Virus record (IMG/VR): IMGVR_UViG_2737471818_000007
Length of the DNA stretch: 47,226 bases
DNA from: a virus
Lineage: Duplodnaviria > Heunggongvirae > Uroviricota > Caudoviricetes
Direction: 5' to 3' (one strand)
Within the stretch, counting starts at the first letter, position 1; each line of letters starts with the position of its first letter. Position numbers and translations under genes: made by a program. The notes beneath the pieces were generated by a model, which saw nothing but the letters and a program-made list of their open reading frames with translations, was not told the DNA's origin and ran no database searches. Below are positions 1 to 34,986 of this stretch, one piece after another.

Positions 1-582
1 TTACTCTGCAGGTGAAGTCGGCCACTCAATATCAGGTGCAGTTGATGTATCAACACGGTTCAGCAATACCCGATACTTCTTCCAGGCTTCCAGCAACGAG
101 GTTTCTTCCTCCGTTGCAATTTCCAGATCTGCAGCATCCTGAAGTGGCGCAATATGCTCACTGGCTACCTGCATCAGGCTTTTTTTTGTTTCTTCCGCCT
201 CCCGGATCCGGAACAGTTTTTCTGCTTCCGTATCCTTCACCCAGGCTGTGCCGTTCCACTTCTGATATTCCCCTCCCGGCGATAACCAGGTAAAATTTTC
301 CGGTAACGGACCGAGTTCAGAAATAAATAACGCGTCGCCGGAAGCCACGTCATAGACGGTTTTACCCCGATGGTCTTCAACGAGATGCCACGATGCCTCA
401 TCACTGTTGAAAACAGCCACAAAGCCAGCCGGAATATCTGGCGGTGCAATATCGGTACTGTTTGCAGGCAGACCGGTATGAGGCGGAATATATGCGTCAC
501 CTTCACCAATAAATTCATTAGTTCCGGCCAGCAGATTATAAATTTTTATGGTCCGTGGTTGTTCACTCATTCTGAATGCCAT
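1..582 (-). CDS. tfa: tail fibre assembly protein (Tfa-like)
   Basis: 193-aa ORF with stop at 1-3; its ATG (580-582) overlaps the stf stop (TAATG); resembles lambda Tfa (recalled, not searched). Confidence 0.85.
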
Positions 583-2970: not shown

Positions 2971-3591
2971 TCAGAATTTATAACCGACCCCAACGATGAA
3001 TCCGTCAGTACGCCAGTCGCCACTGCCGGAGCCTTCATAAGCAATATCAACAACGACGGACGCTGCCGGATTAATCTGTATACCTGCACTCCACGCCACT
3101 GAGGTATGCCGCATTGCACTTTCGTCCCTGGCGGTGGTCGTCTCTTTCATATACCCGGGAGTGATTTCCGTCTTACGGTAATCCCTTGTACTGCCGGACC
3201 ACCGACTGTGAGCCACTCCGGCCATGGCGTACGCACTGACCTGCTTACTGATTTGTAAAACCGGTCCGGCCATCACGCTCACATAACGTCCACGCAGGCT
3301 CTCATAGTGAAACGTATCCTCCCCGGTCATCACTGTGCTGCTCTTTTTCGACGCGGCGAACCCCAGGGAAGCCATCACCCCCACACTGTCCGTCAGCTCA
3401 TAACGGTACTTCACGTTAATCCCTTTCAGATGACTCACACCGGTATCCCCGCCCGACAACGACGGCAATGTACCCGGTTTCACCTGAAAATAGCCCACCG
3501 TAAACGTACCATGTCCACCTTCCGCACGGGCCGGAGTGACTGTCACCGCAAGTGCGGCAAAGACAGCAACGGCAATACACACATTACGCAT
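2971..3591 (-). CDS. lom: Lom outer-membrane protein (Ail/Lom family)
   Basis: 206-aa ORF with signal peptide (MRNVCIAVAVFAALAVTVTPARA) and C-terminal GYKF typical of 8-strand beta-barrel Ail/Lom; lambda position between J and stf. Confidence 0.9.
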   Translation of the reverse strand: MRNVCIAVAVFAALAVTVTPARAEGGHGTFTVGYFQVKPGTLPSLSGGDTGVSHLKGINVKYRYELTDSVGVMASLGFAASKKSSTVMTGEDTFHYESLRGRYVSVMAGPVLQISKQVSAYAMAGVAHSRWSGSTRDYRKTEITPGYMKETTTARDESAMRHTSVAWSAGIQINPAASVVVDIAYEGSGSGDWRTDGFIVGVGYKF

Positions 3592-25601: not shown

Positions 25602-25880
25602 TCAGCGCCTTCGTAATACAAAGATTTTTGAAACGTTCCCACGAGCACGAACCACCAGCACGCAGAACAGCAGGTTAAAAAACACTTCCAGCCAGCCCGT
25701 TGCTAACGGGCGACCACACAGATAGCTGAGGGGCGCAAAGGCATACAGCAACATCAGCAGCCAGGCCAGCCACGACATCAGCGGTTTATGTCTCGACTCA
25801 CCACGACGATAAAAAAAGAGCGTCAGCACGATAACCGTGCTTAACACCATATTCAGTAATCCGGGAAGGTTACTTAACAT
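25602..25880 (-). CDS. lysis-cassette membrane protein (second holin-like protein)
   Basis: Track ORF begins at GTG 25892; ATG at 25880 preceded by GGAGG; ~92 aa with two or three hydrophobic helices; sits between holin and endolysin. Confidence 0.6.
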   Translation of the reverse strand: MLSNLPGLLNMVLSTVIVLTLFFYRRGESRHKPLMSWLAWLLMLLYAFAPLSYLCGRPLATGWLEVFFNLLFCVLVVRARGNVSKIFVLRRR

Positions 25881-26259
25881 TACCGCCTCCACCCCGCAGA
25901 CGGGAGAACAGCCCAGATACCAGCGATGCGATATCCTGCTGGTGGATGAATGATAGAATCTTCACCGACACCACCGATACCAGTACCGCACAAAGCGCGT
26001 CGAGAGATGTGCTGTGGAGATTCAGTTTTTCAGCCAAGTAAGACGCCATCACATCCGCCCCCAGCACGCCAACAATGAACGACACCAGAAAATGCGCTGC
26101 CACACGCCAGACAGAAATCTTCTGTGGTATCGTGGCCACAAACAGCGCCCCTGCGAATGCACCAAACACAATCCCGAAATCCGTTCCGGTAAACAGCCCG
26201 AATACCGTCGCCCCGCCGAGCGCCGCAGCCGTGCCGGAACCGGATAAGGGTTCAGACAT
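25870..26259 (-). CDS. putative holin
   Basis: Track ORF 25870..26472 trimmed to the ATG at 26259 preceded by AGGAGA; 129 aa, Gly/Ala-rich transmembrane segments; first gene after the terminator-rich leader. Confidence 0.65.
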   Translation of the reverse strand: MSEPLSGSGTAAALGGATVFGLFTGTDFGIVFGAFAGALFVATIPQKISVWRVAAHFLVSFIVGVLGADVMASYLAEKLNLHSTSLDALCAVLVSVVSVKILSFIHQQDIASLVSGLFSRLRGGGGNVK

Positions 26260-26275
26260 ACTTTTTCTCCTGTAA

Positions 26276-26308
26276 ATAAAAAAGGGCCTCTGTCGGCCCG
26301 TAAAAAAA
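26276..26308 (-). terminator. rho-independent terminator just upstream of the holin (tR'-like)
   Basis: Minus strand GGGCCGACAGAGGCCC followed by TTTTTTATTT, about 20 nt before the holin RBS. Confidence 0.6.
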
Positions 26309-26426
26309 CACCCCATCAAAGGCACCCGCAGATGCCTTTTGTGTGGTGTTATCTGGTGTTTTCTGATGTGATGTGTACAGGACACAGATGTGAAAAAGGT
26401 CCGCCGGTACGAACCCTGTGTATGAA

Positions 26427-26455
26427 TAAAAAAATGCCCGTCAGGAGACGGGCCA
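26427..26455 (-). terminator. rho-independent terminator in the late leader
   Basis: Minus strand GCCCGTCTCCTGACGGGC followed by ATTTTTTT. Confidence 0.6.
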
Positions 26456-26508
26456 ACGCATTCATCATGCAAGAGTTAAGCAGGATTACTTGTATCGAAT
26501 TATCGGTA

Positions 26509-26583
26509 TCAGAATGAGTCGTCAACCTGCAACCGCAATTCTGACGAATCGTAGGTTCCGGTACAGGTGACGACTCATTCTGA
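26509..26583. repeat. large inverted repeat (stem ~20 bp, loop ~32 nt)
   Basis: ATCAGAATGAGTCGTCAACCTG ... CAGGTGACGACTCATTCTGAT. Confidence 0.7.
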
Positions 26584-26656
26584 TAACGCATACCATTAAC
26601 AATGTAAAAAACCAGCAAGCCTCAAATAAATTAGCATAATTAAAATCTCAGAATAC

Positions 26657-26762
26657 GATGCCTGATGCATTATCGGGATAAAGCATAATTACCTGATAAA
26701 TGAAATGCCTGCATTGCAAAGATCCTCACCAATAACCATGCTTTATCCCGATAAGGCATCAC
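26657..26762. repeat. 21-bp inverted repeats flanking a ~50-bp spacer
   Basis: TGCATTATCGGGATAAAGCAT ... ATGCTTTATCCCGATAAGGCA (20 of 21 match). Confidence 0.65.
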
Positions 26763-27056
26763 ATAATTAAATATGTTGCATTAAGATGACGTTCCGCCCC
26801 ATAACACCCTGATATTCACCTAACTCGCCATGAAATCAGAACGCCATCTGAATACACAGAAAAAAGCTGGCTTTACACCACCCTGCATGTGAACGCAGAA
26901 CTCACCCCACCACGTGCTTTCGCAACCAGCACACAATCTGTGTCAAAAACTGGCAGATGAGCAATGAAACTGCCAGTGCGGTCACCTGTCTTAGTTCGCA
27001 TCGCTAATTCTGCGTGATAACAAGCTTTTCGTTCTTATCTTATTGTGCACTCCTGG

Positions 27057-28106
27057 TTAACCCGCCTGCTCCATTATTTCACCAACGGTCTGTTCAAAAC
27101 GTTCTTTTTCCAGTTCCACGCCAGTCGCCCTGCGTCCCAGTGACAGTGCCGCTTTTATTGTCGCCCCCGACCCCATAAAAAAATCGGCAACCAAATCACC
27201 GGGGCGACTGCTGGCCTCAATTATCTGCCGCAACATATCGGCTGGTTTTTCACAGGGATGTTTGCCCGGATAATACTGCACGGGCTTGTGCGTCCAGACA
27301 TCCGTATACGGAACGGCAACTGATACGGAAAAATAACGCCGCAGGGATTTGTACTCCTTCAGCAGGCTGGCATATTGCCGGTTCAGTTCACTGTATGTGC
27401 TGACCAGCTGGTGGTGTGGCTTTTCCAGTTCCCCGCGTTGATGTTTTTCTGCTGCAACACGCGCAAACAACGCCTGTAATTTCAGATAATCACCTTCGTT
27501 CGGCAACTGCCACTGACTGATACCAAACCAGTGCGAAGCCATGTTTTTCTTTCCGGTGGCTTCCGCTATCTGTTTTGACGTTATTCCCAGTGATTCACGC
27601 GCATCACGAAAGTAAGAAATCAGCGGGGCCATGACGTGCTGTTTTAGCTCGCTCCCCTTTGCCGCATAGCCGTCATTTTTGGGCCGGTATGGCCCCTGAT
27701 AATGTTCTGCAAACAGAATGCGTTCTGTTGCCGGGAAATACGCCCGCAGGCTTTCCTTGTTGCATCCGTTCCAGCGTCCGGACGGCTTCGCCCAGATAAT
27801 GTGGTTCAGCACATTAAAGCGCTCACGCATCATGATTTCGATATCAGATGCCAGGCGATGACCACAGAACAGGTAGAGACTTCCGGCAGGTTTCAGTACC
27901 CGCCAGAACTGCGCCAGACACTGTTCCAGCCATTTCAGGTAATCATCGTCGCCCTTCCACTGGTTATCCCAGCCCTCGGGCTTCACTTTAAAGTATGGCG
28001 GGTCTGTGACTATCAGATCGACTGAGTTTTCCGGTAAGGTCTGGATAAATTCCAGGCAATCAGCGTTGATTAACTCACAACTGGATATTTTTACAGTATT
28101 AACCAT
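27057..28106 (-). CDS. DNA methyltransferase, beta-class N6-adenine/N4-cytosine type
   Basis: 349-aa ORF with ATG at 28106; motif IV DPPY near the N-terminus (LIVTDPPYF) and motif I FxGxG near the C-terminus (DFFMGSGAT). Confidence 0.8.
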   Translation of the reverse strand: MVNTVKISSCELINADCLEFIQTLPENSVDLIVTDPPYFKVKPEGWDNQWKGDDDYLKWLEQCLAQFWRVLKPAGSLYLFCGHRLASDIEIMMRERFNVLNHIIWAKPSGRWNGCNKESLRAYFPATERILFAEHYQGPYRPKNDGYAAKGSELKQHVMAPLISYFRDARESLGITSKQIAEATGKKNMASHWFGISQWQLPNEGDYLKLQALFARVAAEKHQRGELEKPHHQLVSTYSELNRQYASLLKEYKSLRRYFSVSVAVPYTDVWTHKPVQYYPGKHPCEKPADMLRQIIEASSRPGDLVADFFMGSGATIKAALSLGRRATGVELEKERFEQTVGEIMEQAG

Positions 28107-28256
28107 AGATCAATAAGCACTTCTCTGATAGGCTCATACCGCTTTTGCGCAAAGCAGATGGGCCTGAGGTTTGCTTGTGACCCCAAAGCATGAGCAGATG
28201 GCTGGCAGGTGCCGCTAACACCCACCAGCCGCCCATTACCACAAATTAAAAAGCCT

Positions 28257-28454
28257 TCACTGCGGAAGGCGTCTGTAACAACCGAACTGATAATCTGCCA
28301 GACCCGCCATAACAAGCTGAGTCAGTATTAACTGGCAGCGTTCGCGTGAAAGGTAAGTATTCTGCGCAATTTCCCCGACGGTCGCCGGTTCGGTGACGCG
28401 TAATTCATTAAAAACCACTCTGGCGGTTTCGGTCATATCCTGCTGTTTTAGCAT
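28257..28454 (-). CDS. small putative winged-helix DNA-binding protein
   Basis: Track ORF 28257..28634 trimmed to the ATG at 28454 (MLKQQDMTETARVVFNELRVTEPATVGEIAQNTYLSRERCQLILTQLV..., 65 aa); upstream of the methyltransferase on the same strand; function inferred only. Confidence 0.45.
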   Translation of the reverse strand: MLKQQDMTETARVVFNELRVTEPATVGEIAQNTYLSRERCQLILTQLVMAGLADYQFGCYRRLPQ

Positions 28455-28576: not shown

Positions 28577-28603
28577 CAAAAAACCCGCTCGGCGGCGGGT
28601 TTA
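28577..28603 (-). terminator. putative rho-independent terminator
   Basis: Minus strand AACCCGCCGCCGAGCGGGTT followed by TTTTTGTG. Confidence 0.4.
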
Positions 28604-28713
28604 GGCTGTGTGGCGAAGCGACTATCCTTAACACAATACAATAGTTTTTGCGTACGCGTTAATGATTTTGTAAAATTAATTGATGGGTTGATTTTAAAAC
28701 AAGGATATATTAT

Positions 28714-30117
28714 ATGGCTCGTAAAGATTTCACTCAGCAAATAGACATTCCAATTCAAAATATCCTCCTCGATACTGAAAATGCCAGAATCCGCGCAGGT
28801 AGAGATCAAAACAACTGCATTTCAAGGATATTGCGTAAAGAAAACCAGATGCTTGTATTGATGGAGGATATTGCAGAAAACGGACTTACAACCATGCCCA
28901 TATTGGTTATGCCTCACTCAGAAGGTAAATGGGTAGTTAAAGATGGTAATAGACGAATAACAGCTTTAAAACTATTAAATAACCCAGATAGTTGCCCGGA
29001 ACCACATTTAATTCCGAAAATAAAAAAAATAAAAGAAAAATATCATGACAACATACCTACTACTGTTGACTGTTTATCAAGTGACAATTTTGAAGCAGTA
29101 TTTAAAGAGATAATAGCAAGGCATTCTGGAGCACGTAATGGTGCTGGTCAATATGACTGGTTTGCATATATGCGAACAATTTATCTATTAAATAATGGAC
29201 ATCCAACTGATTATAAAAGAGCTGGTCAATATATGTGTTGGGCTGAACAAGAAGGCATTGATGTAGATGATGATTTCCCAATCACTAGTGTAGCCAGATT
29301 CTTTACTAGAGATAATCTTCTATTGTTAGGATTTGAAGTGGAAAATGATAAATTGAAGCCAATACTCTCAAAAGAAAAAATAATAAAAATGGCCTCAAAA
29401 ATTAATAGCGACTTTTCTTCAAAAATAGTTGATGTTAACACCGTCTTTAATCCTAGCGATGCAAAGAAATATCTTTGCTCGGTAAGAAAATATGCAGGAA
29501 TAATAGATGATTTTGCTTACAATAGTGATGACACAGAACAAGAAAATAATAAAAAAGAAGAAACAAATAAATGTTCCTCTCCATCTGAAGTGGATAACAA
29601 TAATGCGCAATCAGATAGTAAGAGTGACGCACCTGTACTACTAAAAAAACACGCAGGTAGAGGAGGTACACCTAAAAAAATACCAGCAGAGCGAAATAAA
29701 ATTTTTGGTAGAGGAAAGCCTGGAATTACTATTCCTGAAAATGAGACTAAAATAAGAACTATAATCTCAGAACTTAGGCAATTAGATGTAAAAAAAACAA
29801 CTCTTGCAACTGCATTTCTTCTTCGGGCACTGCTGGAGTTAAGTGATAAAGAATATAGAACAATTAACAAGTTGCAAGATAAAAAAAGCTTAGCTAAAAA
29901 TATTGCTAATAGCGCAGATCATATGTTGAAAAATAATCTAATCACTGACTCAGAACACCATATAATATCAGCTTATACTCGCGGCGAGCAAGGAACTGTG
30001 CACATTGAAACTTTACAAAAATTAATTCACAGAGAGACACATCACCCAGATTATATCTCAATTAATGTTTTTTGGGACAATATAGGTTGTTTTGTTCGAG
30101 CTTGTTGGAAAGATTAA
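28714..30117 (+). CDS. ParB/Srx-fold (DGxRR motif) N-terminal domain protein, unknown function; candidate nuclease or defence protein
   Basis: 467-aa ORF with ATG at 28714; N-terminus has ParB-like motifs (ILLDTENARIR; GLTTMPILVMP; VVKDGNRRITALKLL); Lys-rich low-complexity linker; His-rich C-terminal domain; very AT-rich. Confidence 0.65.
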   Translation: MARKDFTQQIDIPIQNILLDTENARIRAGRDQNNCISRILRKENQMLVLMEDIAENGLTTMPILVMPHSEGKWVVKDGNRRITALKLLNNPDSCPEPHLIPKIKKIKEKYHDNIPTTVDCLSSDNFEAVFKEIIARHSGARNGAGQYDWFAYMRTIYLLNNGHPTDYKRAGQYMCWAEQEGIDVDDDFPITSVARFFTRDNLLLLGFEVENDKLKPILSKEKIIKMASKINSDFSSKIVDVNTVFNPSDAKKYLCSVRKYAGIIDDFAYNSDDTEQENNKKEETNKCSSPSEVDNNNAQSDSKSDAPVLLKKHAGRGGTPKKIPAERNKIFGRGKPGITIPENETKIRTIISELRQLDVKKTTLATAFLLRALLELSDKEYRTINKLQDKKSLAKNIANSADHMLKNNLITDSEHHIISAYTRGEQGTVHIETLQKLIHRETHHPDYISINVFWDNIGCFVRACWKD

Positions 30118-30163
30118 AATAATATACCACGCTGGACTAATTTATTAGTCCAGCGTACAGTTT

Positions 30164-31018
30164 TCATTTCTTCTTCATAGAGGGAGTGCTATGAATATTT
30201 AAATTTTTATATACCATAAGTTCTGTAACTCTTGGCCTTGTCAAATGAGTTGAGTAATGTAAAGAAAACTCCACAATTTTTTCGTCTTTATATAACTTCC
30301 TGATTTCTTCACAATTATCATATGTAACAATTATCGGAGTGGAAATATCCTTAACCTTTTCAGAAATTAATTTATGATCATGAGGTTTATAATGATTTCT
30401 ATAAAGCTGGCTACCTTTTTCATAATATGGAGGATCAAGATAAATTAGAGATTTTTTTGGTAGTGTATTTTTTATACTACCAATCAACTCACAGGCATCC
30501 AAATTATAAAGATCAATAAATTTTTTCATTCCACCTATTTTTTTTACTCTTTCACATAGTTTCTTCTTATTATACCTAGCATCAATCTTATATTTACCAC
30601 TCTGTTCTTTTCCTCCTATAACCCCACCTGATAAGATTCCAGAACGATTGGTTCGATTGAGAAAAAACGTAGCAAAACCAATAGATAAAATATCATGTTT
30701 AGTATAATTGTTTATTACATCTTTTTGCTTATACCAATTATCCATTGTTACTTCTGTTTCATTTATCAATGAAATAAATTTATCATTCTCATTTAACACT
30801 GACCACCAAAATGAGTAAACAACAGGATCCAAATCATTAATAATGACATGATCTACATATCCATGCATTAGCAAATACAATGCAGCTCCTGCGCCGCCAG
30901 CATATGGCTCCACATAATACCCACCACTAATTCCGTTATACCTCAGCAGTTCTGATATCCAAGGCCCCATCCTCCCTTTTCCACCGGGATAACGTAATGG
31001 GGTAAAAAATGTAGTCAT
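30164..31018 (-). CDS. DNA adenine methyltransferase, D12 (Dam-like) class
   Basis: Track ORF 30164..31054 trimmed to the ATG at 31018 (MTTFFTPLRYPGGKGRM..); motifs YPGGK, VEPYAGGAG, FLNRTNRSG, YLDPPYY parallel E. coli Dam; AT-rich; convergent with the ParB-like gene. Confidence 0.8.
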   Translation of the reverse strand: MTTFFTPLRYPGGKGRMGPWISELLRYNGISGGYYVEPYAGGAGAALYLLMHGYVDHVIINDLDPVVYSFWWSVLNENDKFISLINETEVTMDNWYKQKDVINNYTKHDILSIGFATFFLNRTNRSGILSGGVIGGKEQSGKYKIDARYNKKKLCERVKKIGGMKKFIDLYNLDACELIGSIKNTLPKKSLIYLDPPYYEKGSQLYRNHYKPHDHKLISEKVKDISTPIIVTYDNCEEIRKLYKDEKIVEFSLHYSTHLTRPRVTELMVYKNLNIHSTPSMKKK

Positions 31019-31105
31019 GCTGAACCTCATACAAAACCAGGAAATTAAATGCATTTTACCCTAAATCACATCAATTCTAAATAACTAAATTAACAGTATT
31101 AAAAT

Positions 31106-31459
31106 TCAGTTATCTGAAAGTATAAATAGCATCCCATCAACGAACCCCAATGCTGTTTGTAGTTCTTTTCTGATTGTGCCATCTGAACACTTCCGCTTTT
31201 TTGCAATTGTACGGAGAGAAATCCCGATAACAAAGTGAGCAATGATCAGCTCATATTCTTCTGGTTTATATTTCCGCAACCGGGCCACACATCCATCAAT
31301 CATAATTCCTTCATCATCATCGCACTGGAGACGTGACATTTTACCGTGTGGTAGAAGCCCCTTGAAGCCTGCCGCTATCGACTGCCAATCAACACCACTA
31401 TTTTCTGCTGCAGCCCATGCCCCCCAGCGGTCTAAAACCTCATACATATCACGCCCCAT
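31106..31459 (-). CDS. Q: late-gene antiterminator Q (QuuD / phage 82 Q family)
   Basis: Track ORF trimmed to the ATG at 31459 preceded by AGGTG; ..LDRWGAWAA..SIAAGFKGL..CDDDEGIMIDGCVARL.. resembles DLP12 QuuD (recalled). Confidence 0.75.
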   Translation of the reverse strand: MGRDMYEVLDRWGAWAAAENSGVDWQSIAAGFKGLLPHGKMSRLQCDDDEGIMIDGCVARLRKYKPEEYELIIAHFVIGISLRTIAKKRKCSDGTIRKELQTALGFVDGMLFILSDN

Positions 31460-31820
31460 TACTAACACCTCTAATTTCGCAAATCTTCACGCCCAGCCGA
31501 CCACCAGGAACGGGCTGACCGCGCACAATATTAATTTCATCAAACTGCTCGTCGTCGATAAGCAGTCCCGCATGCGTCAGCGCATCCAGCGGTGCTTTCA
31601 GGATATTGTCCAGATCACGACGGCGCTTATCCGGTGGCTCTGCAATAATCTTTATCGCCAGCCTTCCGGACAGGTTTAATTTCAGCCGCTGCTGGCAAAC
31701 AATAAGCGCCACATCCCGGCGATAACGCTCACCGGCTTTTGATACAAAATATGTGCTGCCACGACGTCGCCAGTAGGTGTTCACCGTTGGCGGGTAAGGC
31801 AAAACAAACTCTATACGCAT
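31449..31820 (-). CDS. rusA: RusA Holliday-junction resolvase
   Basis: 123-aa ORF; PPTVNTYWRRRG..RRRDLDNILKAPLDALT.. matches RusA-family motifs. Confidence 0.85.
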   Translation of the reverse strand: MRIEFVLPYPPTVNTYWRRRGSTYFVSKAGERYRRDVALIVCQQRLKLNLSGRLAIKIIAEPPDKRRRDLDNILKAPLDALTHAGLLIDDEQFDEINIVRGQPVPGGRLGVKICEIRGVSNGA

Positions 31821-34576: not shown

Positions 34577-34732
34577 TTACTCCTCAGATTCGTAAGCTGT
34601 GAAGACAGCGACCTCCGTCTGGCCGGTTCGGATTCGTACCTCGCAGAGGTCTTTCCTCGTTACCAGTGCCGTCACTATGACGGTTAAACAGATGACGATC
34701 AGGACGATTAACATCGCCTTTTGCTGCTTCAT
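34577..34732 (-). CDS. hok: Hok/Gef-family type I toxin
   Basis: 51-aa ORF MKQQKAMLIVLIVICLTVIVTALVTRKDLCEVRIRTGQTEVAVFTAYESEE, classic Hok; below the ORF-track size cutoff. Confidence 0.85.
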   Translation of the reverse strand: MKQQKAMLIVLIVICLTVIVTALVTRKDLCEVRIRTGQTEVAVFTAYESEE

Positions 34733-34790
34733 AGCCTGCTTCTCCTTGACCTTTCGGTCCGTAAGAGGCTAACCTACATGTGTCTAGCAT
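34584..34790 (-). CDS. mok: Mok-like overlapping reading frame (translational coupling for hok)
   Basis: 68-aa ORF in another frame, starting upstream of hok and ending inside it, as in the R1 hok/mok/sok locus. Confidence 0.55.
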   Translation of the reverse strand: MLDTCRLASYGPKGQGEAGYEAAKGDVNRPDRHLFNRHSDGTGNEERPLRGTNPNRPDGGRCLHSLRI

Positions 34791-34986
34791 GAAATTGGCC
34801 TCAGATTAATGTTAAGCGTCTTGCAGGACGCGTAATGTTAACTAGGGCTTTTCTCTATCTGCCTTTGGTGTTCATGCCTGAGGCAGATAGCCTCAAGCAC
34901 CCGCAGCAATTCTACTTAAGTTAGATAAGCTTTTCTATGGTATTCTCTCAGCGTCCCGTAAATACAGTCTCGGCTCATCATTTTTA

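Follow-up and report, generated by a model that had tools for sequence, protein, structure and literature searches.

Hfq-bound small RNAs (sRNAs) are abundant in the interval between the antiterminator gene Q and the lysis genes of lambdoid prophages, with AgvB and AsxR among the examples (Tree et al. 2014, PMC4104026). Likewise, the sRNAs PasA, PasC, and PasD, the last of them a relative of STnc100, adjoin the holin–lysozyme operon (bioRxiv 10.64898/2026.05.13.724894; PMC8550237). Here, we describe a structured noncoding cassette, called I2-T1, that lies in the same niche of the 47,226-nucleotide viral record IMGVR_UViG_2737471818_000007. We refer to this entire stretch as the window. The window, which is also IMG/VR contig UViG_2737471870_000001, represents a lambdoid prophage resembling phiP27, with a phiP27-type late region. 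I2-T1 is a long hairpin (I2) coupled to an intrinsic terminator (T1) on the late-gene strand. With slightly better than even confidence, we view I2-T1 as a candidate addition to the sRNAs known from prophage cargo slots, accompanied by ordinary insulating terminators and set in a patchwork that fills the cargo slot of the late operon. Its expression is something we infer from the features described below.

I2-T1 is built in three parts: a 25-pair hairpin, an unpaired linker of ~45 nucleotides, and T1. This consensus comes from an alignment of 13 distinct sequences representing about five clades (effective sequence number 1.43). An initial annotation, made from the letters of the window alone, had noted a hairpin with a stem of ~20 bp, and its arms are indeed present (26504-26524 and 26568-26588, 95% complementary). 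In the comparative structure, the stem is longer, with 25 pairs that join 26588-26563 with 26530-26504. T1 has a stem of 7 bp at 26453-26436, six of them G-C, followed by a T7 run at 26434-26428. Between the two, the linker carries a single-stranded segment, GAUGAAUG, at 26466-26459, 5 nucleotides before the T1 stem, that is the same in 12 of these 13 sequences. The same count holds for GATGAATG, five bases before T1, in place of which locus L016 has GTTGAATG. Otherwise, the linker is free to diverge (31 of 54 columns are variable), as is the hairpin loop (21 of 37).

The pairing of I2 is maintained even where sequence identity to it is down to 75-82%. Specifically, 97.4% of the cells in the I2-T1 alignment are paired, versus 26-48% after the partners have been shifted by one to three columns. 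Changes on both sides are seen in four pairs, a number that was reached in only 12 of 500 shuffles. In T1, five of the seven pairs are invariant, and U7 is present in 12 of the 13 sequences. The departures from Watson-Crick pairing in I2 are strand specific: there are 33 G-U cells and 4 A-C cells, and the G-U pairs are fixed within clades while the A-C mismatches are singletons. Because G-U is tolerated and A-C is hardly tolerated, the pattern fits selection on I2 as an RNA transcribed from the late strand, rather than as a DNA palindrome or an operator. A covariance model built on the cassette detects it exactly once in each locus on the sense strand, with scores of 155-193 bits, versus 23-45 bits antisense. 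In the window, the scores are 184.6 bits sense and 44.7 bits antisense, and the model has no other match there.

These counts also bear on the proposal that the inverted repeats are an operator pair, one of several possibilities raised in the initial annotation. For I2, tolerance of G-U (G-T in DNA) speaks for late-strand RNA and against a symmetric DNA site. A broader version, in which the repeats are DNA targets, for instance the operator of a dimeric regulator or a methylation-sensitive site of the neighboring methylase, draws on the 12-bp core of the I2 stem, CAGAATGAGTCG. The core is invariant on both arms, each arm contains GANTC, and variation in the core is confined to the N of GANTC. 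The window as a whole has fewer GANTC sites than expected (124 versus 165 +/- 14), yet three of them (26516, 26546, 26572) fall within 61 bp of I2, one in each arm. However, the invariance of the core is partly forced by the search patterns, and no specificity can be assigned to the adjacent beta-class methyltransferase, in which only catalytic motifs match CcrM, RsrI, and MboIIA. Moreover, I2 also occurs in prophages that lack an adjacent methylase (the L005 type), its outer stem tolerates G-U as RNA does, and its arms lie 41-43 bp apart, unlike those of known operators. We therefore regard a DNA-level site as very improbable.

I2-T1 is portable. In segment comparisons it behaves as a single unit with sharp borders, and it is found in 23 of 5426 complete E. 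coli genomes, in 15 IMG/VR viral contigs, and in 7 metagenome contigs. Up to five BLAST places occur in one genome, places here being counted by BLAST alone. The cassette follows a methylase, tRNA-Gly, or tRNA-Ile/Arg, precedes a holin or TerB, and is always in the orientation of the late genes. The carriers seen are phiP27-type prophages with a Phage_holin_8 lysis cassette, mostly in cattle or pig isolates. In strains C5, F2_407, and ETEC1730, I2-T1 comes after phage tRNA genes at a spacing of 140-730 nucleotides, and in loci L003, L004, and L005 no strong terminator lies between the phage tRNAs and T1. A consensus scan of four loci showed no promoter belonging to I2 itself, and candidates picked manually had a spacing that is inconsistent between clades. 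Upstream of phage tRNA-Thr/tRNA-Gly, loci L010 (2700-2866) and L005 (2500-2680) share TTTACA, 17 nucleotides, and TATTGC. By eye, this arrangement looks like a promoter, one that was not reported by the promoter scan and that would drive a tRNA unit ending first at T1. A literature search for the I2 core sequence returned nothing relevant. Finally, an unrelated metagenome contig of 36-39% G+C (Ga0209491_10048000, locus L149, 1500-2520) contains an array of palindromes with TCAGAATGA-like motifs that gave many weak matches to the I2 model; these palindromes probably constitute a different repeat family.

The initial annotation treated the region as one structured leader of the lysis genes. The region is structured, it is noncoding, and it does precede the lysis genes; it is, however, a mosaic of independently inherited modules and not a single leader. 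When the region was cut into segments and each was BLASTed against about 25 related loci, four modules were found in differing combinations among relatives: A1 (the backbone leader), I1 (a rare insertion with a palindrome), I2-T1, and the terminator pair T2-T3. By this comparison, the stretch is a recombinational patchwork of putative RNA-level modules, all of which are oriented with late transcription. The elements that had been named beforehand, namely two terminators, a hairpin, and a pair of 21-bp repeats, are all in place on the minus strand, which is the strand of the late genes. Folding, which had been proposed as a check, separates the region clearly from 200 dinucleotide shuffles per segment: z is -8.1 for I2+T1, -6.8 for I1, and -5.4 for the segment containing T4, T2, and T3, and in each case 0 of 200 shuffles was as stable. 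A scan of 25800-28400 likewise found 10 terminator-like sites, 8 of them on the minus strand, versus 2.8 +/- 1.5 in shuffles.

The region had further been said to encode no protein of 60 amino acids or more. Mechanically, two such open reading frames (ORFs) exist, one of 89 amino acids (26349-26618, minus strand) and one of 61 (26332-26517, plus strand), and in the 13-sequence alignment both are disrupted in relatives by indels that are not multiples of three. A short ORF across T1 (MMNALARLL...) is not conserved either; L006 has a frameshift, indels of 1 and 5 nucleotides occur in other relatives, and a 30-amino-acid ORF within I1 is broken in strain 52F4 (TGG to TGA). Because these ORFs are broken in relatives, the region is effectively noncoding. 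A scan with the Rfam covariance models, also suggested at the outset, yielded no family at gathering score in this region; up to E = 10, only sub-threshold, terminator-driven matches appeared.

A small RNA, which was among the readings offered earlier, is a reasonable one for the I2 hairpin. Like Hfq-type sRNAs, I2-T1 occupies a lambdoid prophage's cargo slot between Q and the lysis genes, it has a terminator with a U-tail of at least 6 after a conserved single-stranded segment, and it has a conserved structure with covariation on the transcribed strand, albeit in a small set of about five clades. The notion is that, in the lysogen, the stacked intrinsic terminators would halt transcription that enters from upstream, leaving the holin silent, while I2-T1 would accumulate as a discrete, stable RNA ending at T1. 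Its 5' end would probably arise by processing of a longer transcript, either a phage tRNA operon or the late leader, rather than from a dedicated promoter, because no promoter-like site precedes I2-T1 in four loci and the phage tRNAs are followed by no strong terminator before T1. The 25-bp hairpin could protect that 5' end, and the single-stranded GAUGAAUG beside the U-tailed terminator would be the likely pairing and Hfq-binding part. A U-tailed terminator and an adjacent single strand are the usual parts for Hfq binding and pairing in enterobacterial sRNAs. Following induction, Q-modified polymerase from the late promoter (about 28.7-28.58 kb) would pass all of the terminators, and the lysis genes would be expressed. 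In the resulting long late transcript, the stems of I1 and I2 (>20 bp) would present themselves as RNase III substrates; both stems have the length, about 20 bp or more, that RNase III requires.

That last step, taken alone, constitutes the main rival to an RNA that acts in trans. Here, the I1 and I2 stems are purely cis-acting RNase III processing or stability sites that split the methylase/tRNA part of the transcript from the lysis part, the terminators provide insulation, and there is no trans-acting RNA. At 25 and about 29-33 bp, the stems are longer than the minimum for RNase III of roughly two helical turns, and phages T7 and lambda provide precedents for RNase III processing of phage transcripts. 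Furthermore, the strand-specific G-U pattern reports constraint at the RNA level and is silent as to trans or cis, and no promoter belonging to I2 was detected. What a purely cis function leaves unexplained is the conserved single-stranded GAUGAAUG beside the U7 terminator and the joint inheritance of hairpin, linker, and terminator with sharp borders. A cleavage site followed 45 nucleotides later by a strong terminator would also be an odd design for a mere processing site. We judge the cis-only explanation rather unlikely. The reading as a trans-acting sRNA can be taken further. Conceivably, I2-T1 is an undescribed, horizontally mobile family of phage regulatory RNAs, a "noncoding moron" that is swapped between prophage late operons and freed when tRNA or late transcripts are processed. 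Through GAUGAAUG, it would target host or phage mRNAs in trans or serve as a sponge, and its GANTC-bearing 12-bp core would be recognized by a specific protein or nuclease. We offer this extended version only tentatively.

A weaker rival holds that the modules are functionless debris, that is, recombination scars and selfish or accidental palindromes, with I1 being the remnant of a miniature transposon or an inverted duplication, and that all of them are passive passengers in a slot that tolerates any content. I1 corresponds to the "21-bp repeats" of the initial annotation. The inverted pair is real and longer than stated, with 29-nucleotide arms at 26663-26691 and 26733-26761 that are 90% complementary and 41 nucleotides apart; the predicted fold has about 29-33 pairs. 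An exact 17-mer occurs twice in the window, where 0.08 matches would be expected at up to 3 mismatches. I1 is a true presence/absence polymorphism of about 117 bp, with an empty site in F2_407 and in L025, and a 10-bp direct repeat, TTTAATTATG, brackets it at 26771-26762 and 26644-26635. This clean presence or absence relative to F2_407-type prophages, together with the bracketing repeat, counts in favor of this rival. In addition, module borders coincide with T-runs common to neighboring modules, making microhomology recombination plausible, a CA-rich unit in the holin leader has a copy number (1 to 5) that changes as in repeats prone to slippage, and all of the modules are rare.

Several observations run counter to debris. 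The pairing of I2 has been kept through compensatory and G-U changes while its loop and linker diverged, and a DNA palindrome kept up by templated repair would show perfect Watson-Crick pairing without a bias toward G-U. As for a transposon, I1 is present in 3 of the 5426 E. coli genomes, at a single place in each, always orthologous, and with no second copy in other collections among the matches listed. Four relatives are known to carry it, counting the window (AREA_497, RM8082, 52F4, and the window), with one copy each. The direct repeat does not flank the arms symmetrically (18 extra bases on the right-arm side), and a repeated 10-mer is near chance expectation in ~900 AT-rich bases. The search for the repeat elsewhere that had been proposed as a check found no dispersed copies: the viral collection gave chance single-arm matches, including two extra hits, and the exact 17-mer gave at least 120 single-arm matches in unrelated taxa among the matches listed from genome contigs (596 Gb), as chance predicts. 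The earlier idea of a miniature transposable element agrees with the terminal inverted repeats but has no support from copy number: I1 is single-copy, occupies an orthologous site in every carrier, and has no second copy in the window. A transposon origin is possible but unsupported, and debris as an account of the whole strikes us as distinctly unlikely. Kinship between I1 and I2 was considered and rejected: the I2 covariance model scores only 20-25 bits on the I1 region of three relatives and returns no score on that of the window.

Returning to I2-T1 as a candidate sRNA, certain points weigh against this view. Neither I2-T1 nor A1-I1 has a match among 50,697 sequenced phage genomes, and no carrier of I2-T1 is a model strain. 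The simple consensus scan of four loci found no sigma-70-like site before I2 on the sense strand. Covariation rests on four pairs and about five clades, and the collection scans required the 12-bp core, making its invariance partly a matter of ascertainment; clades found by BLAST share the core too. The four relatives with I1 are too few for any test of its function. Lastly, membership in described families was tried and rejected. Comparison with PasA, PasC, and PasD1/2 by blastn-short, using gene coordinates in E2348/69 from Table S6 of PMC8550237, gave only chance words of 7-10 nucleotides. Scores for AgvB, STnc100, and RprA were 19.1, 19.0, and 21.9 bits versus gathering scores of 56, 47, and 70, respectively, in alignments that rest mainly on the terminator.

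Two other proposals, a qut/pause element and a 6S-like promoter-proximal RNA of the late promoter, place the function of the repeats at the start of late transcription. The position in the Q-to-lysis interval, with terminators downstream, is compatible with both. However, a strong terminator, CCCGC..GCGGG followed by T6, lies about 100 nucleotides after Q in AREA_497 and in L005-type prophages, and the window, phiP27, and C5 have it at the corresponding position. In the window, this terminator is upstream of a 65-amino-acid ORF and the methylase. The sequence just above it changes with the type of Q across three Q contexts, as would be expected of a Q-specific promoter and qut unit. From these comparisons, the late promoter, the qut site, and the promoter-proximal terminator tR' would lie at about 28700-28577, and that unit is probably the source of a short StxS/6S-like RNA. 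With the late promoter and tR' some 1.9 kb upstream of the repeats, and the 65-amino-acid ORF and methylase in between, the qut/pause and 6S-like readings are excluded for the repeats themselves. I1 and I2 are also optional cargo, absent from most prophages that have the same Q and holin. Of all of the alternatives, we give these two the least credence.

The region nonetheless has the setting for Q-dependent read-through that was noted initially, that is, an intact Q gene and stacked intrinsic terminators that Q-modified polymerase would have to pass. The two canonical rho-independent terminators reported ahead of the holin ribosome-binding site, T1 and T3, were both recovered by scan on the minus strand. 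T2 and T4 had been overlooked, and the holin leader has three terminators rather than two. All four (T1, T2, T3, and T4) have the form of intrinsic terminators, a G+C-rich stem-loop with a T-run directly after it on the transcribed strand, and their stems are conserved in relatives, in the case of T2 and T3 without compensatory changes. T4 is inherited together with what we call the mid segment. In relatives, T2 is the terminator that follows the DUF3927 gene, beginning at its stop codon, and the window has lost DUF3927. The constant 3' flank of the slot, ~160 bp comprising T2, T3, and the holin start (~26362 to 26200), has matches in 384 of the 5426 E. coli genomes and in phiP27. Between T4 and T2, the C/A-rich spacer contains the unit AAAACACCAG, present in 1 to 5 tandem copies across related prophages (including L005 at 3223-3254, L012, and L023). 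The spacer was evaluated as a sponge for GcvB and rejected, the duplex energy being no better than that of composition-matched shuffles. A further terminator-like hairpin, GCCTTC..GAAGGC plus T5, lies at 28253-28270, after the conserved 65-amino-acid ORF (28454-28257) and before the methylase; thus, the late leader carries a long series of terminators. These terminators are ordinary lambdoid biology.

At the other border of the slot, A1 folds into a hairpin with T5 (26977-26945) and a branched hairpin with T6 (26930-26860). Its strongly conserved core of about 170 nucleotides (26777-26950) is found in 58 of the 5426 complete E. coli genomes, is unannotated in every listed match, and directly follows the phage methylase in both loci that were inspected. 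Its predicted fold is a branched hairpin that includes a helix capped by GAAA, together with a T-run. A1 without I1 is present, at 81% identity, in the L005, L012, L015, L023, and L025 prophages. L005-type prophages lack the 65-amino-acid ORF and the methylase, and in them the tR' region abuts A1 directly.

The ~800 noncoding bases between the methylase and the holin are a variable cargo ("moron") slot of the late operon, an identity that follows from the varied cargo found in this interval. Specifically, the interval holds ileZ, argO, and stx2eA/B in phiP27 and, in other E. coli prophages, tRNA-Gly, tRNA-Thr/Gly, tRNA-Ile/Arg, TerB with DUF3927, or a hypothetical gene with DUF1883. The holin border is common to LT-II toxin phages. 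The methylase is syntenic with phiP27 L24, and downstream of the Phage_holin_8 holin, in minus-strand order, come a second holin and a GH108 endolysin. The window itself has no tRNA gene or remnant according to ARAGORN, and no tRNA match in Rfam. Coordinates of the features are collected in Table 1.

Table 1. Features of the late region of the window, with the evidence for each.
Feature	Coordinates	Strand	Basis
Holin (Phage_holin_8), first lysis gene	25870-26259	minus	PF16931, E = 2e-22
T3	26276-26299	minus	Stem 26299-26284, GGGCC/GGCCC, T6; immediately before the holin ribosome-binding site (GGAG 26270-26267)
T2	26301-26350	minus	18-nucleotide arms 26350-26333 / 26324-26307, T7 at 26307-26301; repeat finder and folding
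C/A-rich, G-poor spacer between T4 and T2	26335-26392	minus	Comparison with relatives
T4	26393-26417	minus	Hairpin 26417-26396 and T5 run; minimum free energy structure
I2-T1, portable ~165-nucleotide structured RNA cassette, candidate small RNA	26428-26592	minus	13-sequence alignment, RNAalifold, pair counts, covariance model
I1, rare palindromic insertion	26645-26761	minus	Repeat finder and folding
A1, backbone leader, constant 5' flank of the cargo slot	26770-27056	minus	Comparison with relatives; consensus fold
Phage DNA methyltransferase	27057-28106	minus	PF01555, E = 1e-43; syntenic with phiP27 L24
Inferred late promoter region and promoter-proximal terminator tR'	28577-28700	minus	CCCGC..GCGGG and T6 at 28598-28578; conserved after different Q contexts
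Antiterminator Q	31106-31468	minus	PF06530, E = 1e-44, full length, intact

Other parts of the window also carry noteworthy content. Between Q and the inferred late promoter, 28714-31054 is a two-gene cassette of low G+C (about 30-35%). It contains a Dam-family D12 methyltransferase gene (30164-31054, minus strand) and, divergent from it, a gene (28714-30117, plus strand) for a 467-amino-acid protein that matches nothing in Pfam or NCBIfam. The cassette looks like acquired cargo of the restriction-modification or defense type; phiP27 has a GIY-YIG gene at this place. Two Rfam matches reach gathering level. One is the sok antitoxin RNA (34730-34902, 108 bits), implying a hok/sok locus in the prophage, and the other is IS009 at the left end of the window (41-239, 225 bits).

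If I2-T1 is expressed, it would be a new family on the growing list of small RNAs by which prophages rewire host regulation, here in livestock-associated and toxigenic E. coli, and it would indicate that the toxin/cargo slot of phiP27-type phages can hold cargo consisting of RNA only. Independently, the comparative map of the slot, with A1 on one side, variable cargo, and T2-T3 plus the holin on the other, can serve prophage annotation and the search for further cargo.

How do the modules compare with known systems? I1 recalls miniature inverted-repeat elements and enterobacterial palindromic repeats such as ERIC/IRU in its length of about 117 bp, its 29-nucleotide inverted arms, its insertion polymorphism, and its flanking 10-bp direct repeat. 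It differs from them in being single-copy and always orthologous, with no dispersed copies found, and we know of no partner insertion sequence. Both I1 and I2 resemble the RNase III hairpins of phage polycistronic mRNAs, namely the T7 R sites, lambda sib, and the N-leader, in having intergenic stems of >20 bp on the transcribed strand between gene blocks. T7 R sites, however, have internal loops, whereas the stem of I2, a putative RNase III substrate, is nearly perfect and coupled to a terminator. Lambda 6S RNA and StxS are short RNAs that end at an intrinsic terminator in the late leader and are read through under Q, and in this the region is similar; the corresponding unit maps here to about 28700-28577 and not to I1 or I2. 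Another parallel is provided by the 3' external transcribed spacer (3'ETS) RNAs of tRNA operons, such as the 3'ETS-leuZ sponge. In C5, F2_407, and ETEC1730, I2-T1 comes after phage tRNAs, holds the first strong terminator, and has no promoter of its own that we could find. Unlike 3'ETS RNAs, I2-T1 has no upstream tRNA in the window and is separated from the tRNAs by 140-730 nucleotides elsewhere, and its processing is a supposition.

The closest parallels remain the prophage sRNAs with which we began. In lambdoid prophages of E. coli, AgvB, AsxR, PasA, PasC, PasD, STnc100, and I2-T1 all lie past Q and the late promoter but ahead of the holin. All are noncoding and finish with an intrinsic terminator that has a long U-tail, and all have a patchy distribution among strains and occur in multiple contexts. 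PasD, at 172 nucleotides, additionally matches I2-T1 in strand, size, and layout, with 5' hairpins, a single-stranded stretch, and a terminator. The differences are that the near-perfect 25-bp hairpin at the 5' end of I2-T1 is longer than its counterparts, that I2-T1 is known here from sequence, and that the carriers seen are phiP27-type prophages rather than the Stx1/2 phages of enterohemorrhagic E. coli (EHEC) or enteropathogenic E. coli (EPEC). I2-T1 matches no Rfam or Pas sRNA family, and we regard it as a new candidate within this known class of prophage sRNAs.

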